A program made the translations under genes and the position numbers. From an uncultured Candidatus Saccharibacteria bacterium (GTDB taxonomy: Bacteria > Patescibacteriota > Minisyncoccia > Phycocordibacterales > GCA-2401445): a stretch of DNA of 64,000 nt. The DNA lies in the NCBI GenBank assembly GCA_964436015.1, contig CAYTAR010000001.1, positions 28,321 to 92,320 on the forward strand, read 5' to 3'. Below are positions 8,148 to 49,772 of the stretch, one piece after another. Each line of letters starts with the position of its first letter. Positions within the stretch are counted from its first letter, which is position 1. Under the pieces are notes generated by a model. It saw only the letters and a list, made by a program, of their open reading frames with translations, ran no database searches and was not told the origin of the DNA.

Positions 8148-8199
8148 ATGTTTTTTAGTATACTATCATACTTTTATGCTTATGTCAATAGTCTGATGT

Positions 8200-8228: not shown

Positions 8229-8256
8229 GTTTTATATGAAAGGTGAGGCAATAATA

Positions 8257-8904
8257 ATGTCAAAGGAGGCATTTTATATTTATTTTTTGATGATATCTTC
8301 TGTGAGTATCATTGCGCTTTTTATGATTGGCATACTTCCATTTAAGAACGTGGAGGCTGACAATGTGCCTTTAGAATTGACACCTATAAAGGCAGAAAAC
8401 AGTGTGATTACTACTGAACAAGTGATTATTCCAGACATTGAATCAGGTATGGTTGAGTATCCAGAGTATCCACGAGAGCTTTACATTCCTCAACTTGAGC
8501 GTAGAATCCAAATTAGTAATCCAATTGAGAGTGATTTGAGCGTGTTAGAGCAAGAACTGCTTACTGGCGCGGTACGTTATCCAACTTCAGCACGCGTGGG
8601 TGAGCCTGGAACTGTTTTTATATTTGGCCACAGTAGCTCTTTGCCAGTGGTAAGAAATCAGAACTTCAAAGCATTTAATGGTATACAAAATCTCCATACT
8701 GGTGATCTTGTACTACTGTATTCAGAAACTGCAGAATATACATACGCAGTTAGTTCCGTTCGAGAGGCTACCGTAGACGGTGGAACAGTACCGCTGATAA
8801 GTGATGGTTTTTATCTAGTGTTGTCTACTTGTAATAATTTAAAAAGTAAAGAAGACAGGTTTATCGTTACGGCAGAATTGGTAGCGGTACGTCAATTACC
8901 TTAA
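8257..8904 (+). CDS. Sortase (transpeptidase; ORF track start 8224, RBS-supported start 8257)
   Basis: N-terminal TM anchor; catalytic His in IFGHSSS, catalytic Cys in LVLSTC (TLxTC motif), conserved Arg in RFIVTAELV. Confidence 0.8.
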   Translation: MSKEAFYIYFLMISSVSIIALFMIGILPFKNVEADNVPLELTPIKAENSVITTEQVIIPDIESGMVEYPEYPRELYIPQLERRIQISNPIESDLSVLEQELLTGAVRYPTSARVGEPGTVFIFGHSSSLPVVRNQNFKAFNGIQNLHTGDLVLLYSETAEYTYAVSSVREATVDGGTVPLISDGFYLVLSTCNNLKSKEDRFIVTAELVAVRQLP

Positions 8905-8914
8905 TAACAAATAT

Positions 8915-11701: not shown

Positions 11702-11712
11702 TTCATATAAAT

Positions 11713-11740
11713 AAAAAAATGCCCGATAGGGCATTTTTTT
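11713..11740. terminator. Bidirectional rho-independent terminator between convergent surface-protein gene and dnaE
   Basis: aaaaaaatgcccgatagggcattttttt: stem atgccc/gggcat with flanking A/T runs. Confidence 0.7.
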
Positions 11741-33703: not shown

Positions 33704-34115
33704 GTCATCAATAGAGACCTATTGACGCACTATAGTGATGCGTGGTATTTTCCTTTTGGAAGAAATTCACTCTCGTATCAAAAACCACCCTCGCCTGAAG
33801 TGAGGTAATGGTGGCCTGAAGCCATTTTACAAAGTGGAAAAACACAACTGAATATGCTTGACCCTTACTCCATTGTCACTTTGGATGAAAGTCCATCCAT
33901 GCTTGACATGTACGCTCTTACTTCGTTCGCGAAAAGGAATTCACTCTTGAAGAGATCGAGGCACTCTCCGGTGGAGCTTTTGAATAAGGTAAGAAAATCG
34001 CTTCATGACATATATGTTGCGTGCGGTTTGCTTATTCTCTTCGTCTGTGTACTCGGCATTGCGCTTGTCGGTATGACACAAAATTCCTCCGTTACGGTTT
34101 TCGGACTCGTCGTGT

Positions 34116-34520
34116 GTGGGTTTACACATTGCAGGTGTTGTTGTATACGGCGGAGTTCTGTTTACAAGTAAAAACAGATACTCCAGATTAATGGAGCACT
34201 TATGCTCTCCTCCGCATGAAGTGAGTCGCGAATACGAAGTACTACTTATTGCGAGAAATCTTAACCTGGGAATTCTTTCTCTACTGTCAATGCGCGAAAG
34301 TGAGTTACGACGACTAGTTGATGCTTGCTTGTTCTCCATCACTCAGGAGATACTTCGGATTGAAAATGAAGGAAAGAGAGCTGGCTCATCTTATTCCGAA
34401 CTGCGAGAAGAGTTTGCTCAGAAGCATCGTTTATTCTTGAAATACGAACTTGCAGGAGAAGATTGGGGATATTATTTCAGAAAGGCGGAAATGCTTCTCA
34501 GTCGACCACTTGAATCTTAA
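34116..34520 (+). CDS. Hypothetical protein (region 33854-34520 has two overlapping frames; possible degraded gene)
   Basis: ORF ends 8 nt before a strong terminator; upstream ORF 33854-34171 in another frame; no family recognised. Confidence 0.3.
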   Translation: MGLHIAGVVVYGGVLFTSKNRYSRLMEHLCSPPHEVSREYEVLLIARNLNLGILSLLSMRESELRRLVDACLFSITQEILRIENEGKRAGSSYSELREEFAQKHRLFLKYELAGEDWGYYFRKAEMLLSRPLES

Positions 34521-34527
34521 GTGGTTA

Positions 34528-34560
34528 GCAAAACCCAAGCGCATGCGCTTGGGTTTTTTC
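34528..34560 (+). terminator. Rho-independent terminator
   Basis: aaacccaagcgcatgcgcttgggttttttc: 11-bp stem cccaagcgcat/atgcgcttggg plus T-run. Confidence 0.75.
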
Positions 34561-34779
34561 TATAGACAACATAGTAAAATGTATTAGTTTGTTTTATACT
34601 TTATGTAGTATGAATTCTACAGAAAACATCAAATCAACATGTGAAAAGACTTAGAGACTGTCCAAAACCTCACGTCGGAATGAAATGTTCAAATTTTTAA
34701 GTAAAAATAGATATTTTGAGGAATAATATATGGATATGGTGACGAGAAATAGCCATTTTGTAGCGAGAATTTGAGTATT

Positions 34780-35060
34780 TCAGCCGGCGAGCGTGTTTGG
34801 TTTTCCTTTACGGTGAAGTATTAGCTTTTGCGCGAACCCACTTTGCACGCGCGGAGCGCGTGGTGACTTGAAACTGCGTCTTACGCTCCGATTGCGTGGA
34901 AATGCTAACCAATGCGGCTCGGCCGCGCGCGCCTTGCTCGCGCGGGGCAAAACCCAAAAATTTCCTTTTCATTTTTTGTCGGCCCCCCACACACCCGCCG
35001 CGAAGCGGAAGATTTGAAAGGAAAGAAATTTTATGGTTTTACTGCCGCCGCTTCAATTTC
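34780..35060. other. GC-rich (~60% GC) non-coding segment with multiple GC stems in an otherwise AT-rich locus; unidentified (candidate structured RNA or foreign remnant)
   Basis: Runs such as ggctcggccgcgcgcgccttgctcgcgcgggg, ggccccccacacacccgccgcgaagcgg; ORFs here are Arg-rich artefacts. Confidence 0.4.
34812..34847 (-). repeat. Left copy of 36-bp inverted repeat (32/36 identical to 41445-41480 in opposite orientation)
   Basis: + strand ggtgaagtattagcttttgcgcgaacccactttgca = reverse complement of tgcaaagtgggttcgcgcaaaagctaatacttcacc; right copy tgcgaagtgggttcgcgcaaaggctaatacatcacc. Confidence 0.85.
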
Positions 35061-35068
35061 AACATACT

Positions 35069-35115
35069 TGTAATATATTACATTATTGTCATAGGACACA
35101 ATATTTGGCTATAAT
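35069..35115 (+). promoter_or_regulatory. Promoter of XRE-led operon (-35 TTGTCA 35086-35091, -10 TATAAT 35110-35115) overlapped by a 14-bp perfect palindrome TGTAATATATTACA (35069-35082), candidate XRE operator
   Basis: Direct reading. Confidence 0.5.
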
Positions 35116-35121
35116 ACATCT

Positions 35122-35334
35122 GTGAATATGAAAACCCCAACATCCAAACTTAGCAAGAACATCAAGCGAATACGCGAGCAAAAAGAAATGACACAAGGTG
35201 ATATTTGTCGTGCGGTCGGGCTTGATCGTGCTCAAATGAGCAACATTGAAGCGGGCAAAGGCAATCCCACGCTTGCCACTATTGAGAAAATCGCCCAAGC
35301 GTTGGGAGTATCAAGTGACGAGCTTTTGAAATAA
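35122..35334 (+). CDS. XRE-family helix-turn-helix transcriptional regulator (70 aa)
   Basis: Canonical HTH_3: LSKNIKRIREQKEMTQGDICRAVGLDRAQMSNIEAGKGNPTLATIEKIAQALGVSSDELL. Confidence 0.85.
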   Translation: MNMKTPTSKLSKNIKRIREQKEMTQGDICRAVGLDRAQMSNIEAGKGNPTLATIEKIAQALGVSSDELLK

Positions 35335-35338
35335 ATTT

Positions 35339-36409
35339 ATGAAGAAATCTAAAAAAATAAAAGTTGCGCTTGTTGGTATAGGAAATTGCGCAAGTTCTCT
35401 TGTTCAAGGTGTTTCATTTTATTCAAGATCAGAAAATACGACAGTCGGGTTAATGCATCCCAATTTTGCCGGATTTAAGGTGTCTGATATTGAATTTGTT
35501 ACCGCGTTTGATGTCGATAAAAGAAAAGTGGGAAAAGATCTCGCAGAAGCAATATTTCAAAAACCTAACTGTGCCAAGAAGTTTCAAGGGGTTGAACTAT
35601 TAAATATCAAGGTATTGAAGGGACACGTTTTAGATGGTGTAGCACCTCATATGCAAGAATACTTTATTGTCGATGACGAACAGAAATCAGTTGACATTGC
35701 GCAGGAATTACATAAAAGCGGCGCAGAAATGCTCATCTCTTATTTACCAGTGGGTAGTGCTGAAGCGTCGAGATTTTATGCTAATGAGGCAATAAAGGCT
35801 GGAGTCGGATTTATTAACGCTATTCCTGAATTTATTTGTTCTAAGCCAGAATGGATAGCTAAATTTAAAGAAAAAGGAATACCTTGTGCTGGTGATGATA
35901 TAAAATCACAATTTGGCGCAACTATTTTGCATAGGATTGTAACAAGATTTATTGAAGATCGTGGACATAAGATTGATAACACATATCAATTAAATATCGG
36001 CGGGAATACAGATTTTTTAAACATGAAAGATGAAAGTCGATTGGCTTCAAAAAGATTATCAAAAACGAATGCGGTGACTTCAATACTTGGAGAAAAAGAG
36101 TTCGGGGTTCGAATTGGTCCTAGTGATTACATACCACACCTTAATGACAATAAAATTTGCTATATAAATGTTAAAGGTAAACAATTTGGAGGACTACCTT
36201 TTGAATTAGATATTAAATTAAGTGTTGAAGATAGCCCGAATAGTGCTGGTGTTATGATAGATGTTATTAGAGCCATGAGAGTTGCCCTTGATTGTGGAAT
36301 CTCGGGAAACTTAGAAGCAATTAGTGCATACTATTTTAAGTCACCAGAAGTTCAATATAGAGACGATATTGCTAGGACAATGGTTGAAGACTTTATCAAT
36401 TTTAATTAA
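35339..36409 (+). CDS. ino1: myo-Inositol-1-phosphate synthase (short archaeal/bacterial type, 356 aa)
   Basis: NAD-binding KVALVGIGNCASSLVQG (yeast Ino1 LVGLGGNNGSTL), QLNIGGNTDF (SYNHLGNNDG), SKRLSKTNAV (SKEISKSNVV). Confidence 0.8.
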   Translation: MKKSKKIKVALVGIGNCASSLVQGVSFYSRSENTTVGLMHPNFAGFKVSDIEFVTAFDVDKRKVGKDLAEAIFQKPNCAKKFQGVELLNIKVLKGHVLDGVAPHMQEYFIVDDEQKSVDIAQELHKSGAEMLISYLPVGSAEASRFYANEAIKAGVGFINAIPEFICSKPEWIAKFKEKGIPCAGDDIKSQFGATILHRIVTRFIEDRGHKIDNTYQLNIGGNTDFLNMKDESRLASKRLSKTNAVTSILGEKEFGVRIGPSDYIPHLNDNKICYINVKGKQFGGLPFELDIKLSVEDSPNSAGVMIDVIRAMRVALDCGISGNLEAISAYYFKSPEVQYRDDIARTMVEDFINFN

Positions 36410-36418
36410 TAAGATTTT

Positions 36419-37639
36419 ATGATTTACATACATAAAAAAGAATTATTAGAGCCTGAGTATGAATTTGTCGAACGTAAAGGTCTTGGACACCCAGACACCT
36501 TGTCGGATGCTCTTGCTGAGTTTTTGTCAGTTAACTATTCAAACTATACTCTGAAGAATTTCGGCGCAGTCTTACATCATAATTTTGATAAAGTTGGATT
36601 ACTTGGAGGTGCTTCATTTGTAAAATTTGGTGAGGGATACTTAACAAAACCTATAAGAGTATTACTTAACGGTCGCGCTTCAACAAAATTCGGGGATAAA
36701 AATATTCCTGTTGAAGATTTGTTAAAATCTTGGGTTAGTGAATTTCTGCTAAACAAATTTAGAGATCTAATAAAAGAAAGTGATCTGGAAATTCATTATA
36801 ATTTAAGTACTCAAAGTAGCCCTGGTAAAACTGAAGACTTTAAGTCTACAAATACTCCTCGAAAGTTTTGGTTTGAACCAAGAAATTTTGACGATCTTCC
36901 GGAGACTAAAAAATTATTCTCCAATGATACTTCTTTGGGTGTAGGTTACGCTCCTCATTCTAAATTAGAGAGACTTGTTTTAGATATTGAAGAAACTTTA
37001 AACTCTAAGAGTTTTAAAAAGGATCATCCGTGGATAGGATCCGATATTAAAATAATGGGCACGAGGCATGGTCAGCAGTTTGGTATAACTTTATGCATAC
37101 CGCAAATAGCTAACTACGTACATTCGGTTGATGAATATAGACAAAATTTAGAGCAGACTAAACAAGTTATTTTCAGGATTTCTCAAAATGTTGGAATAAA
37201 TAATCTTGAGTTATCGTGTAATACTCGTGATAATTTAGAGACAAAAGAACTTTATCTTACGGCGATCGGTTCATCAATAGAAAGCGGTGATGAAGGTTTG
37301 GTTGGTAGAGGGAATAGAGTAAACGGGATAATTTCACCTACAAGACTTATGAGCATGGAAGGGGCTTGCGGTAAAAATCCTGTTTATCATATCGGCAAGA
37401 TTTACTATGTGGCTGCCAACGAGATTAGTAAAAAAATATTTGAAAAGTTTGGCGTCGCAAATGAAGTTTCTTTGATTAGCCAAAGTGGCCGAGATTTACT
37501 TGATCCATGGAAGACCTTCGTTACTTTATACAATTCAGATATAAGCGAAGAACTGGTTCTGATTTTTGTTGAAAACGAGTTAAAAAATATTCCAGAAATA
37601 ACCAGAGGCCTATTAGAGAATAAATTAAGGCTATTTTAA
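36419..37639 (+). CDS. mat: S-adenosylmethionine synthetase, archaeal type (PF01941-like), 406 aa
   Basis: Near-colinear with archaeal MAT: [79 protein letters not shown]; lacks bacterial MetK GHPDKIxDQISD and GGGAFSGKD motifs. Confidence 0.85.
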
Positions 37640-37650
37640 ATTTTAATGTT

Positions 37651-38775
37651 ATGGAAAAGATGCCTAATCAAGAAAAAGAAATAACAAGACTGGAATATTT
37701 GACTACCCATGTTGGTCTAGTCAGGCAACTTGATGAAAAATATTTGCTTGATGAGAAAGTATATTCAACAGATATTCAAAATGAAAGCTTATTAGAACAC
37801 ATACCGACAATTAAGCCGGATAGAGTGATTAGACAGGAAGGAGACACGACTATTTTTACTTCAGCTGGTATTCAGCACCTTGAAACTCTTGAACGTGACA
37901 AAATTAATTTAGAAAGGGAGAAGTTCAAAATTGCACAACCGGTTGTTCGCAGTCAGTTTATGGATAAGATCAAAGAAGGTTATTCGACATCTTTTATAGA
38001 TGAGGCCACCACTCAACTCGGAGTATCTGATGAAGATTTTTTTAGTATGTGTAAACAAATGGTAATCAATTCGTTAAATCATGATGCGGATATACAAAAA
38101 TACCATTTAACAATTGAGGCTCAGGATGATCGTTGGGGTCAAAAAAAGTTCACCAAATTAGTCGTTACTTTGTATTATGATGGGAACGAAGTGTCAGAAG
38201 GTGTATATATAGATAAATTTCCTAAAATTGATGGGCAGACTGTCTCTGTTGCCGAAACAACCCACAGCGCCGAAAGATTTAATTGGATTCACAGAGAAAA
38301 TCGAGACCGACCATATTTTATTGGCTTTGAAGAATTCTATAATACTGATAATAAAGATGATGTCGCAAGAATTATAGATCCCGTCAGAACTGCTACATTG
38401 ATGCTCATGCAAGGAGTTGTTCCATCACATAAGGATCCCGGATTCAGATTAAGACAGCTGATTAAAAGATTTGTGGAAAGAAATGCCGAGACTTCTTTTT
38501 CTGAAGATAGACTTTTAAATTTATCACATGATTTTTGGTTAGGAAATAACGTTGAAGGAATTGTTGATAAGGTCGAGATTCGTGAATTGTTAAAGAAAGA
38601 AATGACACGTGCTCAAAATGTACACATTGTCAGTTGGGTCGAGATAAATACTGGTAAGAAAATTAAGGTTGATGTGAATCTAAGCACAGATGAATTTCTT
38701 AAAAGGATCTATTCTTCATCACCAGAGGAGATTATTGGGGTAGTAAAAAGTATTAATTTAAAAAAATATGAGTAA
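37651..38775 (+). CDS. Alanyl-tRNA synthetase catalytic-domain paralog (truncated, 374 aa; motif 3 degenerate) - putative amino acid ligase
   Basis: Colinear matches to E. coli AlaRS N-terminal region: TTIFTSAGIQ (LLFTNAGMNQ), AQPVVRSQ (SQRCVRAG), RIIDPVRTATLMLMQGVVPSHKDPGFRLRQLIKRFVER ([39 protein letters not shown]); position of DTGMGLERI occupied by ETTHSAERF; no editing or C-Ala domains. Confidence 0.7.
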   Translation: MEKMPNQEKEITRLEYLTTHVGLVRQLDEKYLLDEKVYSTDIQNESLLEHIPTIKPDRVIRQEGDTTIFTSAGIQHLETLERDKINLEREKFKIAQPVVRSQFMDKIKEGYSTSFIDEATTQLGVSDEDFFSMCKQMVINSLNHDADIQKYHLTIEAQDDRWGQKKFTKLVVTLYYDGNEVSEGVYIDKFPKIDGQTVSVAETTHSAERFNWIHRENRDRPYFIGFEEFYNTDNKDDVARIIDPVRTATLMLMQGVVPSHKDPGFRLRQLIKRFVERNAETSFSEDRLLNLSHDFWLGNNVEGIVDKVEIRELLKKEMTRAQNVHIVSWVEINTGKKIKVDVNLSTDEFLKRIYSSSPEEIIGVVKSINLKKYE

Positions 38776-39445
38776 ACTTTTTTTAAGCGGTGGTGGCGAT
38801 ATAGAGACATCTTATCCGTTCGATAGTCTATTCTTTGATTCACTGCCACAGAGCGCGAATATTCTTTATATTCCCATTGCAATGGCAACCACCATGGCTA
38901 GAACAGAAGCATCTTTTGACTGGTTTTCAAAATTGATTTCAAGTCATTCAAGTAGCGACAAACACTTGGACTTTACTGTGTGGAATACTGGAGATTCTTT
39001 ACCTATCCTACATAATTACAATGCTGTATATGTTGGTGGTGGTAATACATATAGACTCTTGATGATGTTAGAAAAACCAGGAATGCTTGATGCTCTAAAA
39101 AAATATATCAGAAATGGTGGTATCTATTATGGTGGGAGCGCCGGTGCCGTGATTGTTGGTAAAAGCTTACGGACAGTGGATGAAGAAAATTTAGAAAATT
39201 ATTCAAAGCGTGATGGTATGAATCTTATTAATAATCTTTCTATATTCCCACATTTTTCAGATAGTGAGGAGCAAAAAAATATCATTAGAAATATCTGTGG
39301 CAATTATGCTTTAACGATAGCCGCGCTTCCTGAAGGCTCAGGTCTTGTTCTCGATGAGCGAGGCATAAGTGTTTACGGTAATATGTATTTATATGAACAA
39401 GAAAAGAAAACTCTTTTTTATACATCTGGGCAAATTATCAAGTAA
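38768..39445 (+). CDS. Peptidase S51 family protein (peptidase E / cyanophycinase-like serine hydrolase)
   Basis: VYVGGGNTYRLL, nucleophile motif YGGSAGAV, His in IFPHFSD; overlaps upstream gene by 8 nt. Confidence 0.7.
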   Translation: MSKLFLSGGGDIETSYPFDSLFFDSLPQSANILYIPIAMATTMARTEASFDWFSKLISSHSSSDKHLDFTVWNTGDSLPILHNYNAVYVGGGNTYRLLMMLEKPGMLDALKKYIRNGGIYYGGSAGAVIVGKSLRTVDEENLENYSKRDGMNLINNLSIFPHFSDSEEQKNIIRNICGNYALTIAALPEGSGLVLDERGISVYGNMYLYEQEKKTLFYTSGQIIK

Positions 39446-40595
39446 TTCTGGTCATACAGCGCGATTGCGGTATGAGTTAAAGGATATCAGCAAGACGGCG
39501 GATATTTCGATTCTGTCTTTGACAAATGAGCCTGACCAATCTTTCATCAATAAAAATCCAAATATACATTTTTATGTTTTGCCGATTAAGTTTAATGGCT
39601 GGAAAGTCGTTAATTTGGGTCATATTGTAGGGCAGATAAATGAAATAATCAGCTTTTGTAAGCCAGATATTGTTATTTTGTGTGTTGAGATCTGGGATTT
39701 AATTTTAGGGTTACATAAAAAAATATCTGACAAAGTAGTGTTTTGTGCTATATGCCACGCAATGCCATTTTTGGGTTCACCCTTGAATCCAACAAAATCC
39801 TTTGAATCAGATGTAAGGAAATTTGCTAATAAGCAAACGCTAAAATACAGAAAAAACTATATTACCAAACATTACAGAGAATTTCCTAAAATTATAAACT
39901 CTGGCTTACTAATTGCAAATAATGCAACCGTTGCTTTTTATTTCAAAAATTATTTCCCGAGGTCATCGTTTTGGAGACAAGTGCCTCATGTTACAGTTGA
40001 TCCGCTTAAAACGTCTAAAACCCTAGATATTGAGTATGATTTTTGTTATATGGCGAGAATGGAGAAAGGAAAAGGAGTAGAATATCTGCAAGATTTGTTT
40101 AGCAGAATTTCAATCAAGTTGGGTAGAAAAATCAGTGTGGCAATCATGGGCAGAGCTGATGATAAGTACTCCCAAGAAGAACTTAGAGGGCTACTTGAAA
40201 GTGAAGGTGAATCTTTTTCCGTTCGTTTTTTCGGTTGGGCTGATGATAAAACCAAAGCTGAAGTGTTGAGTAAAAGTGGTTGTTTTATTTATCCGTCAAC
40301 TTACGATAATTTTCCGACAGTGGTTAATGAAGCTATGGCTCATAGCTTACCTGTGGCAATGTGGGATACTCTTTTTTATAAAGTTAACTATTCTGACATA
40401 AAGTCTGTATCTGTGGCTACTCCTTTTAATGTTGAGCATCTGGCTTCAGTGGCCGTGAATCTGTTACAAGGAAAATCTACCTTACGTCGCCATTCTATAG
40501 AATACATAAAGGAAAATGGTGGCTCCAGATCAGTCGCAAAAGATGATCTTATACTATTTGATGAGATAATTAAGCGTTATGAAAGAAATAAATAA
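39393..40595 (+). CDS. Glycosyltransferase family 4 (GT-B; MshA/PIG-A-like retaining GT); ORF track start 39369
   Basis: C-terminal GT4 signature FIYPSTYDNFPTVVNEAMAHSLPVAMWD (EX7E-type motif). Confidence 0.8.
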   Translation: MNKKRKLFFIHLGKLSSNSGHTARLRYELKDISKTADISILSLTNEPDQSFINKNPNIHFYVLPIKFNGWKVVNLGHIVGQINEIISFCKPDIVILCVEIWDLILGLHKKISDKVVFCAICHAMPFLGSPLNPTKSFESDVRKFANKQTLKYRKNYITKHYREFPKIINSGLLIANNATVAFYFKNYFPRSSFWRQVPHVTVDPLKTSKTLDIEYDFCYMARMEKGKGVEYLQDLFSRISIKLGRKISVAIMGRADDKYSQEELRGLLESEGESFSVRFFGWADDKTKAEVLSKSGCFIYPSTYDNFPTVVNEAMAHSLPVAMWDTLFYKVNYSDIKSVSVATPFNVEHLASVAVNLLQGKSTLRRHSIEYIKENGGSRSVAKDDLILFDEIIKRYERNK

Positions 40596-41352
40596 TAACT
40601 TTGAAAGAATTTTCCCGAAAAAGAATGTTATTGTAATGCTTCATGCTCACGCTGATGATGAATCTTTCTTGTCGGCTGGTACTATAAATGAATTTATAGT
40701 ACGCAATTATAATGTCTTATTGATCTATTTGGCTACAGGTCTTATTGAAGAAGAAAAAAGAACAACAATTAGACGGAAAGAGCTCACCGAAGCTTTAAAG
40801 GTCTTGGGAGTAAAAAATGTAGAGTTTCTTGAGTATTGTGAACCTAAATATACCGTAAATGGTAAACCTCTTTATTTACAATCAATAAAAGAAATTTCAA
40901 ATAACATTAGAACAATTATTGAAAAAAGAGGTATAAAACATTATACGCTTTTTTCATATGATAAAAACGGTGGCTACGGCAATAAAGATCATCTCGTAGT
41001 ACATAAGGCAGGTAGGTTGTTATTCGTAAATTCGTCACCGGTTAGTCTACTATTTGAGATGACAATCCCAAGAGATGTATACTTGCGTTGGATCGGAAAA
41101 TATAAAAATAATGTTCCTGAATTATATTTACCGAAACTAAATTACTGGTCTACAGAATTTGGACTAAAAAACGAAGAGATTGATTATTTTTTTTTATTAA
41201 ACTCTCTACAAATAAAATTAAAGAAAAAAGCTCTTAGTAAACATGTCTCACAAATAAAGAATAAGGAATTCCCATTATCTCTCACTAATGCCGATTTTAT
41301 AGAATTATTCGGTAGAGAATATTTTGCTTATATTGATACATCGATTCTGTAA
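40579..41352 (+). CDS. PIG-L/LmbE-family N-acetylglucosaminyl deacetylase (MshB/BshB-like)
   Basis: VIVMLHAHADDESFLSAGTI (AHPDDE motif), GNKDHLVVHKAG (HxDH zinc ligands); overlaps upstream gene by 17 nt. Confidence 0.8.
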   Translation: MKEINNNFERIFPKKNVIVMLHAHADDESFLSAGTINEFIVRNYNVLLIYLATGLIEEEKRTTIRRKELTEALKVLGVKNVEFLEYCEPKYTVNGKPLYLQSIKEISNNIRTIIEKRGIKHYTLFSYDKNGGYGNKDHLVVHKAGRLLFVNSSPVSLLFEMTIPRDVYLRWIGKYKNNVPELYLPKLNYWSTEFGLKNEEIDYFFLLNSLQIKLKKKALSKHVSQIKNKEFPLSLTNADFIELFGREYFAYIDTSIL

Positions 41353-41444
41353 GGTGTCACTAACTTGACCGAAGCACAGAGCGAACATGAAGAAAGCACC
41401 GGAGAGGCTCTGTGAACGAATGTGAGCGGCGAGTGCAAGGTGCT

Positions 41445-41480
41445 TGCGAAGTGGGTTCGCGCAAAGGCTAATACATCACC
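41445..41480 (+). repeat. Right copy of 36-bp inverted repeat (pairs with 34812-34847), followed by weak hairpin/T-run 41487-41512
   Basis: tgcgaagtgggttcgcgcaaaggctaatacatcacc; lies in 5' leader of helicase gene. Confidence 0.85.
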
Positions 41481-41538
41481 AATCAACCCGTCAGAATGGC
41501 GGGTTTTTTTGCGCGAGGATACAAGGTATACTACTGCA

Positions 41539-44451
41539 ATGAGTACTGAATTTGAGAAACGGTATAAATCCCTTAATACCGAGCAGAGGTCCGCCGTTGA
41601 TACTACAGAGGGACCAGTAATGGTTGTAGCAGGTCCAGGAACGGGCAAAACTACGATATTAACGCTCCGAATTGCAAACATACTCCGTACTACCGATACG
41701 CCTCCACACGCTATTCTAGCAATTACCTACACTGACGCTGGTGTACGTGCAATACGTAAGAAGCTAACTGAAATTATAGGTGACCGAGCTGCAGAGGTGG
41801 CCATACACACATTTCACAGTTTTTCCCATTCAGTGCTCACAGAGTTCAAAGACCATGTTCCTCATGTAAGTGAAAGTGAGCAAATGAATGATACAGAGAT
41901 TGAGCACATGATTCACTCAATCCTTGATAAAAAAAAGTATGCAATTCTTAGACCGCTCGGACGCCCAGATCTCTATGTAAACGACATTATTCGTGGTATC
42001 AGCTCTCTAAAAAAGGACGCTATTTCTCCTGATGACTTGCGAACATTTGCGAGGAGGGGGATTGAAATGGTTTCTACAAGTGAAGATTCAATTTCAACTC
42101 GTGGAAAATCAAAAGGGTCGCTTAAGGCAGAAGCTAAAAAGCAAATTCAAAAATACGAAAAGACGCTACTTCTTGCAGATATGTATCAAGAATACGAAGA
42201 GAGAAAAAGAGAGGAATCACGCATTGACTACGATGATCTAATCCTTGAATTACTCGCCGTGTTCTCTCAAGACGAGTTATTGCTTCAGTTACTCCAAGAA
42301 AAGTTTTTGTATGTACACATAGATGAGCATCAGGATACAAATGATTCGCAAAATCTGATACTCCAAAGTATTATTTCTTTTTTTACAACACCAAATATTT
42401 TTATTGTTGGAGATGAGAAACAAGCAATATACCGTTTTCAAGGCGCATCGGTAAAAAACTTTTTACATTTTTCTGAAAAGTATCCTACTATTCAAACCAT
42501 TCCACTTACTCATAACTATCGTTCTAATCAACGCATCCTTGATGCATCACATGCGGTCATAATGCACAACTACACCGAAGCTAATTCTGCTACACTACTC
42601 ATTCCACTTACCGGCTCAAAAACTGAAGCCCCTACACAACCACTTACGGTTATCACTGGAGGAACTGAAGGAGACACGTTGTCTGCGCTTGTTGAAGATA
42701 TTACTCTTAAGCCCGATCAAGAAACGGTGGCTGTAATTGTAAGAAAGAATGCTGAAGTTGACTCTCTGCTTTCATTTTTGCAAGCACGCGGAGTATCTGC
42801 GTCTGCAGAAAGGGGAGTTGATATTCTTTCACACCCGCTCACTCTGTTGTTTTTTGCATTACTTCGTGTCGCGGTCGACTCAAGCGATACGGAAGCGCTC
42901 GCTATAACGGTGTCACATGGCTTGTGGAACCTTTCATTCGCGGATTCAGTGGTAGCGCTTTCACTAATAAAGAAAGGTGATACGGAAAGTGTTGTGCAGA
43001 TGATTCCACAATTAAAGTTAATCACAAAAGAAAAAACAAAGGAGGGGGTTATCTCATTTCTTATCTACCTCGCTGAAGTAAGTACATTTCTTGCAAAAGT
43101 AACCGCGCATCCTCTTTCCTCCGAAGTGTGGCGAAATATTCTCACATTAAGTGAACATATTGCGACTGCAAAGAAAACGCGTGATCCACATACAGTTGTG
43201 TCACACTTGCTTTCATATCAAGGAGGTAAGCGAGTTAAGAAAATTTTTTATACCGTTGGAGCGGAATCCGCCCGCGTATTTGTTATGACTGCGCACGGAA
43301 GTAAGGGGCTGGAGTATGATCATGTGTATATACCATACGCCACTGAAGAATCGTGGATACGAACCAAGACTCATGCGGAGTTCTTTATACTTCCAAGTAC
43401 GGGTTTTGATAGTCATCATTTACAAGACGAAAGGCGCCTATTTTATGTCGCGCTTACTCGCGCACGAAAGACAGTAACGTTTGGTTGTATGGAAAGAATG
43501 AATGATGGACGTACTGTCTCTCCATTGCGTTTTATTTCTGATATTCCCAATGAGCTTGTTGTTAACAAAACTGCACCTTATACGACGGCATATACCTTGC
43601 ATACTACTCACGGAAACTATGAATACGCAGAAAAAGAAATTCGTGATTATACAGAACAAGTGTTGCGTTCAAAAGGTATTTCAGTAACCGCTCTGAATCA
43701 CTTCATGGACTGTCCGAGAAAATTTTACTATCAAAGTATTCTTAAAATTCCTCACCCTCCGAATCCTAGTTCTGAAAAGGGAAATGCGATGCACCATGCA
43801 ATATCAGCAGTATGGAATACAAAAAAATTCTCAGAACGTGCAATTCTTGAAACGCTAGATTCATCAATACTACAGTTCCTAAAGAAATCAGATCTACGGA
43901 AAAGTGATTCTGAAGTTCTCTATGACGAGTTAGCTGAAATCATTCCTGCACTCTCAAAATCGCTCGTGGGGCACTTTAACCAAAGTGGAGTAGTTAAATC
44001 AGAGTCATGGGTAGAATCAGCATTTGTGCATAAAGGGGAGAGTTTTAAGTTGCATGGAAAAATGGACACGATAATTGAAACAGAATCAGAAATTCAGGTC
44101 TATGATTATAAAACAAAAAAAGCGATGTCTGATAACGAAATTCTTGGACTTACGAAGGGAAGTGATGGTGCATATTGGAGACAGCTTATATTCTATTCTC
44201 GACTACTCGCTGATACTAGTTCGCGTATAAAGAAAAAGGTTACCCCGTATCTCATGTTTATAATTCCAAATGAGCGTGGTGACTGTAAGACCTATACCCA
44301 CGAGATTACCAATGATGATATTTCTCGAGTTGAGGGAGAACTTACAAAGCTTATTGATTCGGTTCAAGATGGTACGTTCCTCACCATGTCTTGCAATAAA
44401 AAAGAATGCGAGTGGTGCGCTCTTTCAAGTAAGAATGACCAGAAAGACTAA
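41539..44451 (+). CDS. UvrD/PcrA-family SF1 helicase fused to C-terminal Cas4/AddB-like PD-(D/E)xK nuclease with 4-Cys cluster (ORF track start 41422 includes the repeat)
   Basis: Helicase motifs VVAGPGTGKTT (I), VHIDEHQDTNDSQ (II), IVGDEKQAIYRFQGAS (III), HNYRSNQRI (IV), HGSKGLEYDHVYIP, RRLFYVALTRARK (VI); nuclease region MDCPRKFYY...VYDYKTKK...YWRQLIFYSRLL...CNKKECEWC. Confidence 0.85.
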   Translation: MSTEFEKRYKSLNTEQRSAVDTTEGPVMVVAGPGTGKTTILTLRIANILRTTDTPPHAILAITYTDAGVRAIRKKLTEIIGDRAAEVAIHTFHSFSHSVLTEFKDHVPHVSESEQMNDTEIEHMIHSILDKKKYAILRPLGRPDLYVNDIIRGISSLKKDAISPDDLRTFARRGIEMVSTSEDSISTRGKSKGSLKAEAKKQIQKYEKTLLLADMYQEYEERKREESRIDYDDLILELLAVFSQDELLLQLLQEKFLYVHIDEHQDTNDSQNLILQSIISFFTTPNIFIVGDEKQAIYRFQGASVKNFLHFSEKYPTIQTIPLTHNYRSNQRILDASHAVIMHNYTEANSATLLIPLTGSKTEAPTQPLTVITGGTEGDTLSALVEDITLKPDQETVAVIVRKNAEVDSLLSFLQARGVSASAERGVDILSHPLTLLFFALLRVAVDSSDTEALAITVSHGLWNLSFADSVVALSLIKKGDTESVVQMIPQLKLITKEKTKEGVISFLIYLAEVSTFLAKVTAHPLSSEVWRNILTLSEHIATAKKTRDPHTVVSHLLSYQGGKRVKKIFYTVGAESARVFVMTAHGSKGLEYDHVYIPYATEESWIRTKTHAEFFILPSTGFDSHHLQDERRLFYVALTRARKTVTFGCMERMNDGRTVSPLRFISDIPNELVVNKTAPYTTAYTLHTTHGNYEYAEKEIRDYTEQVLRSKGISVTALNHFMDCPRKFYYQSILKIPHPPNPSSEKGNAMHHAISAVWNTKKFSERAILETLDSSILQFLKKSDLRKSDSEVLYDELAEIIPALSKSLVGHFNQSGVVKSESWVESAFVHKGESFKLHGKMDTIIETESEIQVYDYKTKKAMSDNEILGLTKGSDGAYWRQLIFYSRLLADTSSRIKKKVTPYLMFIIPNERGDCKTYTHEITNDDISRVEGELTKLIDSVQDGTFLTMSCNKKECEWCALSSKNDQKD

Positions 44452-46007: not shown

Positions 46008-46709
46008 ATGACATCAGAGACTACGAGATTTATGTTTGTCCTGCCGATACTGTTTCAGAGTATTATTTATATTGTTATATATATACCATTTAAGGTCTTT
46101 GCTCGTTTTAAAGTGCATGGACTAGAAGAGTTGTCTTTACAACCACAAGGGTTAATTTTTGCTCCGAATCACACCAGTGAGTGGGATCCGATACTTGTTC
46201 GTTTCGCACTTCCACTATTCTCAAGGAAGTTCAGTCCTATGTACTATGTGGCTCGGCAAAGACGTGAGTATACAGAATCAGGTTTGAGACAGTTTTTTTA
46301 TGGAGGTGTTTTTTTCAAATTAGTTGGCGGTTATCCTCGTTACTCAGGTAAAAAAAATTACAATTACTCACTGTTCAATCATATACATCTGTTAAAAAGA
46401 AAAAAAAATGTTACTATTTTCCCTGAAGGAAAAAAGTATGTTGGTGAGATTAATAGAAAAGTTCATGGAGGGGTAGCATTTCTCTCTCATGTAACCAGTA
46501 CACCAGTGATTCCTGTTGCAATCAAAGGTATAGAAAACTTCTCATTAATACGTTTCTTTTCTTTTAAAATGAGAATTTCTGTTACATTTGGAAAGCCAAT
46601 TGATCCACTTACTATTATTCCGCAAACAAATCCAGCTGTTGAAGACTACCAACTAGGTGCACAGTTTATATGGGAAAAAATTCTTGATTTACAACAGCAG
46701 AAACTATGA
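46008..46709 (+). CDS. plsC: 1-acyl-sn-glycerol-3-phosphate acyltransferase family (PlsC/OlsA-like)
   Basis: HxxxxD motif NHTSEWDP, FPEGKK motif, N-terminal TM. Confidence 0.75.
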   Translation: MTSETTRFMFVLPILFQSIIYIVIYIPFKVFARFKVHGLEELSLQPQGLIFAPNHTSEWDPILVRFALPLFSRKFSPMYYVARQRREYTESGLRQFFYGGVFFKLVGGYPRYSGKKNYNYSLFNHIHLLKRKKNVTIFPEGKKYVGEINRKVHGGVAFLSHVTSTPVIPVAIKGIENFSLIRFFSFKMRISVTFGKPIDPLTIIPQTNPAVEDYQLGAQFIWEKILDLQQQKL

Positions 46710-47458
46710 TTACAATAAAAAAACTGACTATTCTAGAGGGAAAGAATAAAAAAACAATAGAATTTGGTATAGCAAATACTCCTGAGGAATTAGAAAAAAT
46801 TTTTAAACTTAGATTTGAAGAGTACTCTAAAAGAGATTATATTTTCAATGAGCGTTACCAAGACAAAAGAGAAGTAGACTTCTATGATGGGCTTATAAGT
46901 ACAAAATATTTCTGTGCATTCCTAGAAGGAAAATTGATAGGTACTATACGGTTAATTACTGAAAAACCACTACCAACGGAACAATATTTTGATTTTACTC
47001 CTCCAGACGAAATAAAAAATCTTCCTAAAGAAAAGTTAGCAGAACTAGGTAGATTTATTGTAATTCCACCTGATCGAGACAAAAAAATTTTTTTACCAAG
47101 AAATGTAGTTTTACTTTTTTTAATAGAAGTGCTTGTCACTTACGCGAAAGAACAAGGTTTAGTGGGCGGATATGCATTTATAAAGCAGTCTTTGATTATA
47201 AAGTTAAAAAAGCTGTCTGCGCCAATTAAGCAAATACCTGTTTATAAAATGCATTATCCAGATGATGGTTCTTTATACAAGTATTTTTATCAAAAAGAAA
47301 ATCCCGTCTTTCCTTGTTATTATGTGTTAGAGGATTTTCAAAAGTACCTGAATAAATTAATTCATTCAGAATGGTTGTTCAAAAAGATAGGCATAGGTCA
47401 TTTTCAATTACGTAGCAACTTATATACTAAGTTTTTAAAAGTTTTTAAGGTATTATAA
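46706..47458 (+). CDS. GNAT-fold N-acyltransferase, N-acyl amino acid synthase / OlsB-like (putative)
   Basis: GKLIGTIRLI and ELGRFIV motifs resembling NAS/OlsB/exosortase-associated acyltransferases; start overlaps plsC stop (ATGA). Confidence 0.5.
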   Translation: MITIKKLTILEGKNKKTIEFGIANTPEELEKIFKLRFEEYSKRDYIFNERYQDKREVDFYDGLISTKYFCAFLEGKLIGTIRLITEKPLPTEQYFDFTPPDEIKNLPKEKLAELGRFIVIPPDRDKKIFLPRNVVLLFLIEVLVTYAKEQGLVGGYAFIKQSLIIKLKKLSAPIKQIPVYKMHYPDDGSLYKYFYQKENPVFPCYYVLEDFQKYLNKLIHSEWLFKKIGIGHFQLRSNLYTKFLKVFKVL

Positions 47459-47462
47459 AGGT

Positions 47463-48167
47463 ATGTTAAATGATACTTTCTGGGAAAAATATTTTTCTGT
47501 GTATGATGCCTTGAATAAATTAATACCTTATCAGGAATTATTAAATCAAATTGTCCTTTCGGCGGGAGAATTAAATGATAAAAAGATACTTGATGCGGGT
47601 TCTGGTACAGGTAATCTCTCTGTGTTGCTTTCTATGTCTGGGGCTACCGTTACGGGAATAGATTATTCTAGAGTAGGGGTATCTATACATAAATCAAAAT
47701 TGCCGAATAGTAAAGTGGTAGTTTCTAATTTGTGCGATTTGCTTCCATTCGAAAGTTCTGAATTTGATGTTGTGGTTTCAAATAATACACTTTACACGAT
47801 TCCTAGGAAGGAAAGAGAGTCTATAGCGCATGAGTTTTTTAGAGTATTAAAACCTGGTGGAAGGGTGGTTATATCTAATCTCAAAGTTAACTTTTCACCA
47901 TTAAAAATTTATATTGACCATTTACAAAAGTCTTTATCAGTAAATGGTTTCTTGAAGACAGTTTATACAGCTTGTAAACTCATACATCCTACAATTAAAA
48001 TTTTTTATTATAATAAATTAATTCAAAACGAAAACCGTAGTGGCTCATATGATTTTTTTGAAGATAATGAGCAATCAGAACTTTTAATTAGAGCCGGATT
48101 TTCGAAAATAACTCTTGTTAAAGATGTATATTCCAAGCAAGGTGAATTAGTGGTCGCTCTAAAATAA
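47463..48167 (+). CDS. Class I SAM-dependent methyltransferase
   Basis: Motif I ILDAGSGTGNLSVLL, motif post-I VTGIDYS, motif II FDVVVSNNTLY, LKPGGRVVIS. Confidence 0.8.
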   Translation: MLNDTFWEKYFSVYDALNKLIPYQELLNQIVLSAGELNDKKILDAGSGTGNLSVLLSMSGATVTGIDYSRVGVSIHKSKLPNSKVVVSNLCDLLPFESSEFDVVVSNNTLYTIPRKERESIAHEFFRVLKPGGRVVISNLKVNFSPLKIYIDHLQKSLSVNGFLKTVYTACKLIHPTIKIFYYNKLIQNENRSGSYDFFEDNEQSELLIRAGFSKITLVKDVYSKQGELVVALK

Positions 48168-49772
48168 ATGAATAGTTTTCTCAGCATTTTAATTTATTTT
48201 GTGTTAGTCACCAATGTTATATTGGGTGTTGTTATTCTTTCAAGAGGGATAAAAAATACACTTAATATACTATTCGGGATGCTTACATTTAGTGTATCTT
48301 TTTGGTGTATAAGTGTCATTGGTTTTTATTCACCTAATTTCCCACTTGAAACTAAATGGACGGCGTGGACACATCTGTTTGCATTACTAATAAGTTATAT
48401 TTTTTTCTTTTTCAGCACCCGTTTCCCCTCCAAGATGCGCATACGTAAATTAATTTACTTCATTGCCTTCATTCTATTTTTTGTAGTTGTTTATCTACTA
48501 TTTTACAGCAACATTATTGTAGGAAATACTATTGATTTTAAATATGAGGTCAACTTTGGTTACTACATCTACGCATTGATTATTTCTTTTTTCTTTTTAT
48601 CTGGCTACTATACATTTGCACTTCAGTATCGCAATCAGAGTGAACATGTAAAAAAGAATCAAATCAAATATATTTTTTTAGGCTCGTTTTTATCTTCTAT
48701 ACCAGCTATTATTACTAATCTTTTGCTTCCTGCTATAGGTATTTTTAACTATACGTGGCTTGGTCCAATATTTACAGTCTTTCTTGTGGGCTCTATCTTT
48801 ATAGCTATTTTTAGATTTCACCTCTTCAATATTAAAGTTATTATTACTGAAATAATTTCTATTTTCATAATTTCAGTTCTAACAATAGAGATGTTTTTAG
48901 CACAATCAGTTATTTCACTCCTAACAAAAACTTTTGTTTTGATGCTCTTTACTGTACTTTCTTATTTCCTTATAAGAAGTGTCTACAAAGAAGTTGAAGC
49001 AAAGGAGGAAAACTTTAAGCTTGCGGCTAATCTCTCTAAAGCAAATGCTAAACTCCGTGCGCTTGATAGGCAGAAATCAGAATTTCTTTCTATTGCGTCT
49101 CACCAAATACGAGGACCGCTCGCTTCTATCAAGGGTTACGCCTCGCTTATCTTAGAGGGGTCTTTTGGTAAGATTAATCCTAAAGCACGTGAAGCGGTTG
49201 AGCGTATCTTTAGTTCCAGTCACAACCTCGTCCTTGTGGTTAATGATTTCCTTGATGTGTCTCGAATTGATCAAGACAACATGAAGCTCACCCCGGTGTT
49301 GCTTGATTGGAGAAAGGTGGCTAAAGAAACTATTGATGAGCTCCAACCCTCAGTTGAGAAGCGTGGTCTTAAGATTAAGTTTTCAACTGACAAGAAGGTG
49401 TCCTACCCAATATATGCTGATATAGGTAAAGTAAAGCAAATAATTTCTAACCTTGTAGATAATGCTGTGAAATATACTCCAAAGGGAAGTATTGCAGTAT
49501 TCCTTGAAAAGAAAAAGGATGTATTTCGTCTTACCATTTCAGATACTGGTATTGGTATGAGTGAAGAAACAATTTCAGTATTGTTTGAAAAATTCAGTCG
49601 TGCAAAAGACGCTGGAAAAGTAAATATTATGGGCACCGGACTCGGTTTGTATGTCGTTAAGAAGCTTGCGATAATGCAAAAGGGTAAAGTGTGGGCAGAA
49701 TCAGATGGAGAAGGCAAGGGTTCTCGCTTTATAGTGGAATTTCCAATTCATACAGAAAAAAGTGCAACATAA
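48168..49772 (+). CDS. Sensor histidine kinase with 7-TM N-terminal sensor domain (orphan: no adjacent response regulator)
   Basis: HisKA H-box LSIASHQIRGPLASI; HATPase_c N-box DNAVKYT, G1 DTGIGM, G2 GTGLGLYVVKKL; start ATG immediately follows methyltransferase stop. Confidence 0.85.
   Translation: MNSFLSILIYFVLVTNVILGVVILSRGIKNTLNILFGMLTFSVSFWCISVIGFYSPNFPLETKWTAWTHLFALLISYIFFFFSTRFPSKMRIRKLIYFIAFILFFVVVYLLFYSNIIVGNTIDFKYEVNFGYYIYALIISFFFLSGYYTFALQYRNQSEHVKKNQIKYIFLGSFLSSIPAIITNLLLPAIGIFNYTWLGPIFTVFLVGSIFIAIFRFHLFNIKVIITEIISIFIISVLTIEMFLAQSVISLLTKTFVLMLFTVLSYFLIRSVYKEVEAKEENFKLAANLSKANAKLRALDRQKSEFLSIASHQIRGPLASIKGYASLILEGSFGKINPKAREAVERIFSSSHNLVLVVNDFLDVSRIDQDNMKLTPVLLDWRKVAKETIDELQPSVEKRGLKIKFSTDKKVSYPIYADIGKVKQIISNLVDNAVKYTPKGSIAVFLEKKKDVFRLTISDTGIGMSEETISVLFEKFSRAKDAGKVNIMGTGLGLYVVKKLAIMQKGKVWAESDGEGKGSRFIVEFPIHTEKSAT

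Follow-up and report, generated by a model that had tools for sequence, protein, structure and literature searches.

A horizontally acquired operon in a Patescibacteria chromosome and its family of gene clusters with a SAM synthetase, an alanyl-tRNA synthetase-derived enzyme and an S51 hydrolase

Several paralogs of aminoacyl-tRNA synthetases (aaRS) make amides or esters on non-tRNA acceptors, among them the SerRS-like amino acid:carrier-protein ligases, AsnA, PoxA/GenX and GluQ-RS. In aminoglycoside biosynthesis, pairs of a family 4 glycosyltransferase (GT4) and a PIG-L deacetylase (BtrM/BtrD and the neomycin equivalents) transfer N-acetylglucosamine onto a cyclitol and then remove the acetyl group, yielding a pseudodisaccharide. 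The mycothiol pathway (Ino1, MshA, MshB, MshC, MshD), in turn, employs a ligase, MshC, derived from class I CysRS. A protein derived from alanyl-tRNA synthetase (AlaRS) is AcmF of ascamycin biosynthesis, which is truncated to the aminoacylation and tRNA-recognition domains, holds its nucleoside acceptor via the equivalents of AlaRS R69, E209, N212 and D235, takes the aminoacyl group from Ala-tRNA, is reported to have lost most of the ATP-binding residues, and has a dedicated AlaRS and a hydrolase as partners (PMC12945691). Here we analyze a 64,000-nt stretch of DNA (hereafter, the window) from an uncultured member of the Patescibacteria, deposited as a Candidatus Saccharibacteria bacterium (assembly GCA_964436015.1, contig CAYTAR010000001.1, positions 28,321 to 92,320). 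At window positions 35122-41352, it carries seven tightly packed open reading frames (ORFs) on the + strand, for an XRE-type regulator, a myo-inositol-phosphate synthase (MIPS), an archaeal-type methionine adenosyltransferase (MAT), that is, an S-adenosylmethionine (SAM) synthetase, a truncated AlaRS-derived enzyme (hereafter, gene 4), an S51-family serine hydrolase, a GT4 and a PIG-L/LmbE-family deacetylase.

These genes lie on an inserted island and form an operon that is a member of a rare, widely scattered family of small-molecule biosynthetic clusters, in which the conserved unit is the trio of MAT, AlaRS-like protein and S51. The new cluster family centred on this trio is much more secure than any single chemical step that can be proposed for it, and a literature search for the trio, or for an AlaRS-like protein combined with SAM, yielded no published description and nothing relevant beyond AcmF. 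Patescibacteria are thought to be nearly devoid of specialised metabolism, and the island brings a complete, recently acquired, evidently mobile biosynthetic operon into a chromosome of this group. We tentatively favor, with somewhat less than even confidence, a layered model under which an amino-sugar/inositol module is added to the trio core, and the whole would make an aminoacylated glucosamine (GlcN)-inositol-type compound while also consuming SAM.

Gene content across the cluster family

A word-indexed search recovered 32 relatives of gene 4 among 5.8 billion proteins. With an exhaustive profile search, the number of clusters (50% identity) was 175 at E <= 1e-30 and rose to 325 at E <= 1e-10 and to 867 at E <= 1e-3, with nearly all members 330-430 aa long; the family, hitherto undescribed, thus comprises at least 175 sequence clusters. 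When family peptide patterns were used for detection, members were found in 18 of ~185,000 species genomes, mostly of Patescibacteria, the others being from Omnitrophota, Gamma-/Alphaproteobacteria, Chloroflexota and Bacilli metagenome-assembled genomes (MAGs). No relatives were found in the viral contigs scanned for gene 4.

The genes of the window were mapped onto 67 loci, which form 43 groups at 95% gene 4 identity; 19 of these groups have complete flanks, and the counts given here refer to them. An archaeal-type MAT gene adjoins the AlaRS-like gene in all 19 groups. The S51 gene is present in 18, its place being taken by a fused GlyRS alpha-beta gene in L022/L048; GT4 and PIG-L each occur in 15 groups, and the 7 groups with MIPS all have both. 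The architecture of the family is therefore nested, with MIPS inside GT4/PIG-L and these inside the MAT/AlaRS-like/S51 trio. The arrangement is not due to chance, as dozens of unrelated contigs share this gene order. Clusters are small, with 3 to 7 genes, and the trio is kept in three distant members from the exhaustive search (L030-32) and occurs without any sugar or inositol genes in L015, L020 and L029-32. Across the loci, MAT is better conserved than gene 4 (55-72% versus 32-40% identity). The possibility that MIPS is confined to the clade of the window was overturned by metagenome loci, where MIPS recurs in a second clade (L049-55, L058; gene 4 32-38% identical to that of the window) and in L059.

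A first-pass annotation, made from the letters of the window alone, had placed the inositol, GT4 and PIG-L genes at the core of the operon and the SAM synthetase and S51 at its periphery. The linkage counts, together with a fusion of the AlaRS-like protein to S51, show the reverse: the gene set does recur, as the comparison of the 43 groups of loci demonstrates, but the unit that is conserved is the trio and not the inositol set. This result bears on the mycothiol-like pathway that the same annotation proposed, in which the AlaRS paralog would be an ATP-dependent ligase analogous to MshC that attaches Ala, Ser or Gly to GlcN-inositol, with MAT and S51 as accessories. The joint presence of MIPS, GT4 and PIG-L in the window, and the restriction of MIPS to loci with the other two, are what such a pathway would call for; however, MAT and S51 are tied to gene 4 more tightly than GT4/PIG-L or MIPS are, and the trios devoid of sugar and inositol genes are hard to reconcile with it. 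Together with the evidence from the active site and the sugar genes given below, this makes the mycothiol-like version quite improbable.

Natural fusions join the AlaRS-like protein to S51 in P0166, to a GT4-type glycosyltransferase in P0159 and to a class I methyltransferase-like domain in P0145. The first of these, along with the 8-nt overlap between the S51 gene and gene 4 in the window, argues for cooperation of S51 with the AlaRS-like enzyme as opposed to antagonistic immunity; a role of S51 as a pure immunity hydrolase was considered and is made less likely by the fusion. A PIG-L::GNAT fusion in L004-6 and a hexapeptide acyltransferase encoded after PIG-L in L022 fit an order of deacetylation, acylation and re-acylation. 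Variant clusters additionally encode SAM-dependent methyltransferases, radical-SAM enzymes, a carbamoyltransferase, CofE-like ligases, second glycosyltransferases and a DegT aminotransferase, and some contain aaRS genes, namely those for GlyRS (L022), SerRS (L031) and GluRS-like proteins (L015, L044).

The fused GlyRS alpha-beta gene of L022 (11027-14083; same region in L048) encodes 1018 aa and lies exactly at the S51 position, between the AlaRS-like gene and the glycosyltransferase genes. In L069 (11497-16977; same region in L070), a block consisting of a radical-SAM gene, MAT and an AlaRS-like::S51 fusion is followed by two tandem HisRS-type genes, a methyltransferase gene and a gene for a 373-aa class II (Asp/Lys/Asn-type) aaRS-like protein that lacks the anticodon-binding domain. 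The same two loci carry an S66 peptidase of the MccF (microcin C immunity) family, and this gene set hints at an aminoacyl-adenylate mimic as the product of that variant. Histidine kinases of the HisKA_7TM type adjoin the trio in two unrelated loci (L020, 16897-18522; L032, 4977-7286 and 9878-end), and another is encoded in the window (48168-49772), ~7 kb downstream of the cassette; the proximity may reflect a sensing link or may be a coincidence.

The AlaRS-derived enzyme and its partners

At the sequence level, the product of gene 4 (37651-38775, + strand, 374 aa) scores below the family thresholds, with 22.3 bits against 30.3 for Pfam tRNA-synt_2c and 19.3 against 457 for NCBIfam alaS, and it is ~15% identical to AlaRS. 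An AlphaFold model built from 20 homologs (pLDDT 85, pTM 0.84) was compared with the PDB by Foldseek, and the best 27 matches were all AlaRS catalytic fragments (E 9e-12 to 5e-8), followed in the ranking by GlyRS-alpha and PylRS. The family profile matched E. coli AlaRS in the PDB at E 9e-8 and, in an hhalign comparison, covered its residues 2-435 with 94% probability. The protein thus consists of a class II aminoacylation domain and, after it, the helical portion with which the tRNA-recognition domain begins. The protein stops after this helical domain, without the editing and C-Ala domains. The three lines of evidence agree with the first-pass identification of gene 4 as a truncated AlaRS paralog; all the other domain calls made there were correct as well, as established by Pfam for the remaining six genes.

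When gene 4 is aligned with E. coli AlaRS by hhalign, the motif 2 arginine (R69; R100 in gene 4), E209 (E180) and the motif 3 E-R pair (E208-R209) are kept, and N212, D235 and G237 are changed to E183, E202 and T204, respectively. Across 160 family members, Q96, P97, R100, F115 and R209 are 100% invariant, as is the motif 3 Glu; position 183 is Asp or Glu in 138 members, and position 202 is acidic in all 160 (131 with Asp, 29 with Glu). Strong conservation also extends to the tRNA-recognition helices (D243, R246, G264, R268, K272 and a PS[NH] motif). The alignment was run in local mode with low mact and cannot be relied on from motif 2 to the E-x-x-N strand, so the equivalent of AlaRS Trp170 was left unassigned. 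This pattern of conservation points to a preserved adenine-nucleotide (or nucleoside) site and to a pocket with two carboxylates that is not alanine-like. Given the replacement of N212 by an acidic residue and, in this clade, of D235 and G237 by Glu and Thr, the enzyme is apparently not a housekeeping-type alanine ligase. The suggestion that the aminoacyl group is Ala, Ser or Gly accordingly finds no support, N212 being replaced by Glu or Asp family-wide; loss of the alanine-recognition residues counts against the mycothiol-like version as a whole, and the invariance of the class II ATP-site residues counts in its favor.

An alternative to ATP-dependent ligation has to be taken seriously. Under an AcmF-type mechanism, the AlaRS-like enzyme would not activate an amino acid; rather, it would hold an adenosine-type nucleoside (SAM or a derivative produced by MAT) in the adenylate pocket and transfer to it an aminoacyl group from an aminoacyl-tRNA. 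The product would be an aminoacyl-nucleoside, possibly an adenylate mimic that inhibits a tRNA synthetase, with the sugars and inositol as decorations and S51 acting in a dipeptidase-like manner. Such a mechanism has a precedent in AcmF itself, with the same two domains, the change of D235 to Glu and Ala-tRNA as the donor (PMC12945691); it also accommodates the strong conservation of the tRNA-recognition helices and the occurrence of aaRS genes and an MccF-family S66 peptidase in variant clusters (L022, L031, L015, L044, L069/70), and it accounts for the obligatory MAT. However, the gene 4 family has kept, without exception, the two class II arginines, the stacking Phe and the Glu of motif 3, in contrast to the reported loss of most ATP-binding residues in AcmF, and the D235 position is occupied by Asp in 131 of the 160 family members. 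Furthermore, the cassette of the window contains no extra aaRS gene, a hydrolase fused to the transferase poorly fits an antagonistic immunity role, and the region between motif 2 and E-x-x-N is much shorter than the AcmF residue numbers imply. Because of this difference in length, the gene 4 family and AcmF are probably independent derivations, in which case gene 4 is the second independent recruitment of AlaRS to small-molecule chemistry. The invariant arginines fit true adenylate chemistry better than the AcmF mode, and we consider the latter unlikely. Thus, the ligation by an MshC-type ATP-dependent reaction proposed in the first-pass annotation agrees with the invariant ATP site but has to compete with aminoacyl-tRNA transfer.

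The two partners of gene 4 are assigned to their families with high scores. Gene 3 (36419-37639, + strand, 406 aa) matches Pfam PF01941 AdoMet_Synthase with 350 bits (E 2e-104, cut-off 27) and can be aligned over its entire length with archaeal MATs of known structure (E ~1e-73). The score and the intact signature blocks (one of 19 residues and one of 12 residues followed further on by GKNPV) assign it to the archaeal-type MAT family, although it remains under the NCBIfam equivalog cut-offs (347 versus 481). The S51 protein (38768-39445, + strand, 225 aa) matches Pfam Peptidase_S51 (E 6e-25, 88.5 bits, cut-off 23.9), and its Ser124 (in GGSAG) and His162 are invariant in 40 homologs; it fails the PepE equivalog (69 versus 156). 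Because the operon encodes no other recognisable SAM-using enzyme, the AlaRS-like/S51 pair probably consumes SAM or a derivative. A bolder proposal, which we regard as possible if rather doubtful, is that the AlaRS-derived enzyme coupled to S51 uses SAM, or a SAM-derived adenosyl/aminocarboxypropyl compound, directly as a substrate and that the trio represents a new, widespread class of natural-product pathways. If so, the reaction class would be new to any aminoacyl-tRNA-synthetase fold, the pathways would yield aminoacyl-nucleosides or amino-sugar-cyclitol compounds with a sulfonium group, which might inhibit tRNA synthetases, and such pathways would spread horizontally among Patescibacteria and other uncultured bacteria with small genomes.

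MIPS (35339-36409, + strand, 356 aa; Pfam Inos-1-P_synth, E 4e-33) aligns over its full length with TIGR03450 at 418 bits, under the equivalog cut-off of 638, and many of its residues are invariant over 13 homologs. The GT4 (GT-B) protein (39396-40595, + strand) comprises ~399 aa from the ATG at 39396 or 408 aa from the GTG at 39369; the ATG is taken as the start because homologs are 400 aa long. It matches Pfam Glycos_transf_1 (E 1e-17) and, in NCBIfam, has no match to MshA at E < 0.1, a weak one to BshA, and weak ones to exopolysaccharide/lipopolysaccharide (EPS/LPS) glycosyltransferases. The PIG-L protein (40579-41352, + strand, 257 aa; Pfam PIG-L, E 8e-17, 62 bits, cut-off 28) is a predicted metal-dependent de-N-acetylase with an AHADDE motif (H24, D26, D27) and H138/H142 that are invariant in 27 homologs. 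Its best named relatives are MshB, Mca and BshB, which is consistent with a mycothiol-like pathway, as is the resemblance of the PIG-L::GNAT fusion to MshD; however, MshB reaches only 43 bits against a cut-off of 224, which, with the missing MshA match, weakens that version. The ORF listing and Pfam searches revealed no class I CysRS paralog of the MshC kind in the cassette.

The GT4 and PIG-L pair is also that of glycosylphosphatidylinositol (GPI) anchor synthesis, and the operon could in principle make a cell-envelope glycolipid or glycoconjugate of the GPI or phosphatidylinositol mannoside type (GlcN-phosphatidylinositol) or modify a surface polymer, as the weak matches of GT4 to EPS/LPS enzymes and the extra glycosyltransferases of some variants would allow. 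Nevertheless, the cassette encodes no phosphatidylinositol synthase (nor does the rest of the insert), flippase, membrane protein or polymerase, the translations of its proteins contain no obvious membrane segment, and the trio would be left unexplained, so that this reading appears very improbable. The GlcN-inositol module favored here, of the MshA/MshB-like type, is by comparison plausible: MIPS occurs only with GT4 and PIG-L and recurs with them in a second clade, and the PIG-L::GNAT fusion and the fusion of the AlaRS-like protein to a glycosyltransferase are in line with it.

The inserted island

The horizontal acquisition of the operon, which the first-pass annotation had surmised, is proven by an empty site. 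The host is a member of the Patescibacteria of the Paceibacteria/Parcubacteria type, and its RpoB is 91% identical to that of a sister genome (L068, a 'Candidatus Paceibacterota' MAG, GCA_040879725.1), where the gene order is RpoB-RpoC-DnaG-RpoD-[80 nt]-helicase-DsbA, the same as in the window minus the island. Nucleotide homology with the sister ends at window position 33703 and resumes at 41527, which identifies 33704-41526 as a 7,823-nt insertion in place of the 80-nt rpoD-helicase spacer. At other loci, the cassette lies in unrelated neighbourhoods; copies with >85% identity occur in MAGs that bear the labels Uhrbacteria, Saccharibacteria and Clostridia, and for its MAT the identity is 90% or higher in MAGs labelled Giovannonibacteria, Yanofskybacteria, Uhrbacteria and 'Clostridia'.

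These data dispose of the simplest explanation of the MAT and AlaRS-like genes, namely that they are adjacent housekeeping genes, MAT being the MetK of the cell and gene 4 the N-terminal portion of a split AlaRS. Neither alaS nor a bacterial metK is found within the 64-kb window, as this explanation would have it. However, the whole segment is missing in the sister genome, the cassette is shared by MAGs with disparate labels, and gene 4 combines its low identity to AlaRS and altered pocket with the lack of a C-terminal half nearby. The first-pass annotation had named a split AlaRS as the finding that would undo it; the remodelled pocket and the occurrence of the protein, along with its cluster, in Proteobacteria and Bacilli speak otherwise, and the housekeeping reading is effectively refuted.

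Neither the ORF listing nor Pfam reveals a transposase or integrase in the insert. A non-coding, GC-rich and internally palindromic repeat element of ~150 nt (34913-35059) precedes the operon, and copies of it, 75-87% identical, lie beside the cassette in at least 10 other loci (including L036, L035, L033, L045, L004, L007, L008-10 and L038). Inverted copies flank the cassette in L035 and L036 (in the latter, 1841-1991 on the + strand and 8693-8548 on the - strand), and the window holds the left copy only. The DNA fold z of this element is -2.6, and it matches no Rfam family; it resembles the terminal repeat of a mobile cassette that lacks a transposase. The operon is, in addition, bracketed by a 39-nt inverted repeat (34812-34850 and 41442-41480), the arms of which are 90% complementary, the left arm having been confirmed by blastn as well. 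This repeat differs in sequence from the ~150-nt element, and a part of it (27 nt, 93%) is found in L049/L050 at ~2154-2180, ~2.3 kb upstream of the cassette; it may be a site of recombination or what is left of a longer terminal repeat.

Within the operon, the first three genes are followed by spacers of 4, 9 and 11 nt (the 5-, 10- and 12-nt gaps noted before are start-minus-end differences) and the last three junctions are overlaps of 8, 50 and 17 nt; the 50-nt overlap presumes the GT4 start at ATG 39396 and becomes 77 nt with the longest ORF, from GTG 39369. A promoter-like site (TTGTCA-18-TATAAT, an 11/12 match to the consensus and identified by that match) lies on the + strand at 35086-35115, 6 nt upstream of the XRE start, and an intrinsic-terminator-like hairpin of 9 bp (5 GC) with a T-run closes the operon at 41485-41514 (+ strand). 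Framed by these signals, the seven genes appear to form one transcription unit. The GC content is 0.33-0.37 over the operon and ~0.41 in the flanks. The first-pass description was essentially right about the seven same-strand genes, their overlaps, the single unit, the low GC relative to the neighbours and the flanking inverted repeats. In the 1.4 kb of non-coding DNA upstream, Rfam searches at gathering thresholds found no riboswitch or other known RNA, and a search of the same DNA with relaxed thresholds gave only sub-threshold matches, on a terminator hairpin. The XRE/Cro-type helix-turn-helix (HTH) regulator (35122-35334, + strand, 70 aa; Pfam HTH_3, E 3e-15) is limited to the clade of the window, where it is 34-39% identical, whereas the enzymes are 75-97% identical.

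A mobile island with an XRE regulator might also encode a conflict, defence or RNA-modification system directed at tRNA, with the AlaRS-like protein acting on tRNA itself. The conserved tRNA-recognition helices, the nearby aaRS genes in variants and a weak match to the GT4-conflict Pfam family (E 0.0075) can be cited for this interpretation, and the absence of a nuclease, toxin or abortive-infection component, the tailoring enzymes typical of metabolite pathways, and the lack of relatives on viral contigs can be cited against it. PADLOC matched none of the enzymes, only the XRE protein on generic HTH models, and this result, with the empty viral-contig scan, rules out a known defence system or phage cargo; for a tRNA-directed system of any kind, the probability seems slim.

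Several further features of the island and its surroundings deserve mention. The first ~850 nt of the insert (33704-34560) have no counterpart in the sister genome or other cassette loci and contain two overlapping ORFs without Pfam matches (33854-34171, 105 aa; 34116-34520, 134 aa, putative, + strand), and beyond the second lies a perfect 14+14 hairpin (34530-34557) with a T-run. For the adjacent AddA/UvrD-PD-(D/E)XK helicase-nuclease, the longest ORF (41422-44451) begins at a GTG inside the insert; by comparison with the sister, the true start is ATG 41539, which makes the initial 39 codons of the long ORF an insertion artefact. In L001, a Patescibacteria MAG with a 51% identical RpoD, a MIPS-less cluster (1545-13740; gene 4 40% identical) lies a few kb downstream of dnaG-rpoD, which may mark a recurrent integration region or may be a coincidence. 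A second low-GC patch of the window (0.29-0.33; 46008-49772) encodes a PlsC-type acyltransferase, a FeeM-like N-acyl amino acid synthase (an autoinducer-synthase-like GNAT), a SAM methyltransferase and the 7TM-receptor histidine kinase mentioned above, and may be another acquired module for a lipid or signal molecule. Finally, a 928-aa protein with DUF11, PKD and SprB repeats (8915-11701), encoded amid housekeeping genes, is probably a large surface or adhesion protein.

Proposed pathway and comparison with known systems

Taken together, these results suggest a pathway along the following lines. MIPS would supply inositol phosphate, GT4 would attach an N-acetyl-hexosamine, and PIG-L would strip the acetyl group and expose the amine, all three steps following the logic of MshA and MshB. 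The AlaRS-derived enzyme would then attach an aminoacyl group to the growing molecule through an amide bond, drawing either on an ATP-activated amino acid, that is, by ligation, or on aminoacyl-tRNA, by an AcmF-like transfer. S51 would act as a physically coupled hydrolytic partner in trimming, proofreading or release, and the dedicated MAT would provide SAM as a stoichiometric substrate. The expected product is not mycothiol but a GlcN-inositol-type metabolite that is aminoacylated and contains a moiety derived from SAM.

Several points weigh against this model. The absence of GT4/PIG-L from 4 of the 19 fully flanked groups, and of MIPS from 12, implies that the function of the trio needs neither. 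By their scores, GT4 and PIG-L are not orthologs of MshA and MshB, so that of the GlcN-inositol pathway originally proposed only its plausibility stands; moreover, a sequence search of the PDB with GT4 found no match, and its sugar and acceptor are guesses. The role of SAM is deduced by elimination, as no recognised SAM-binding fold is present in the operon, and a SAM molecule bound like an aminoacyl-adenylate would bring its sulfonium next to the invariant motif 2 Arg, a poor fit. The equivalence of residues 183, 202 and 204 to N212, D235 and G237 comes from a profile alignment at ~15% identity and a predicted structure. The cassette contains no transporter or resistance gene. The loci stem from MAGs and metagenome contigs, the taxonomic labels of which may be wrong, and were retrieved by family-derived patterns, so the linkage counts are biased to the relatives found and do not describe the whole superfamily.

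Nevertheless, the strict linkage of MAT, the AlaRS-like protein and S51, along with the natural fusion of the latter two, points to chemistry that is not predicted by current pathway knowledge. If the products are aminoacyl-adenylate mimics, the clusters would be a source of new tRNA-synthetase inhibitors, and if they are intracellular GlcN-inositol conjugates, they would represent a new kind of mycothiol-like cofactor outside Actinobacteria.

Among known systems, the thiol pathways of mycothiol and of bacillithiol (BshA, BshB, BshC) offer the counterparts of the inositol-phosphate synthase, the GT4, the PIG-L/LmbE enzyme that frees an amine and the aaRS-derived protein as the sole ligase candidate, and the GNAT fused to PIG-L in some relatives recalls MshD. 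However, the ligase candidate here derives from class II AlaRS, as opposed to the class I CysRS ancestry of MshC, the obligatory SAM synthetase and S51 have no counterpart in the thiol pathways, the sugar and inositol genes are dispensable in a part of the trio family, and the host belongs to Patescibacteria and is not an actinomycete. The aminoglycoside modules share the GT4 and PIG-L pair; they differ in the source of the cyclitol, which is 2-deoxy-scyllo-inosose synthase there and MIPS here, and the cassette encodes no cyclitol aminotransferase or dehydrogenase.

The aaRS paralogs that act outside translation resemble gene 4 in that they retain a class II (or class I) core for adenylate chemistry but serve an acceptor other than the translational tRNA 3' end. 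To our knowledge, none of those listed above derives from AlaRS, has retained the AlaRS tRNA-recognition helices or is tied to a SAM synthetase and S51. The likeness to AcmF, as compared by the description of that protein, comprises the two-domain truncation, the Glu at the Asp235 position and the substituted Asn212 position, and extends to the AcmF/AcmD/AcmE system in the hydrolase partner, the cluster-encoded aaRS (here in variants) and the adenosine-type compound supplied by the cluster. The differences are that the class II ATP-site arginines are invariant in the gene 4 family, that Asn212 is replaced by Asp/Glu here and by Gln in AcmF, that the hydrolase is an S51 protein with a class I glutamine-amidotransferase-like fold that can be fused to the enzyme, as opposed to an alpha/beta hydrolase, and that the nucleoside is supplied by a SAM synthetase and not by sulfamoyl-adenosine biosynthesis. 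Thus, the operon belongs to none of these pathways and yet works like the GT4 and PIG-L modules of mycothiol, bacillithiol and aminoglycoside biosynthesis, combined with an aaRS paralog of the MshC/AcmF type.

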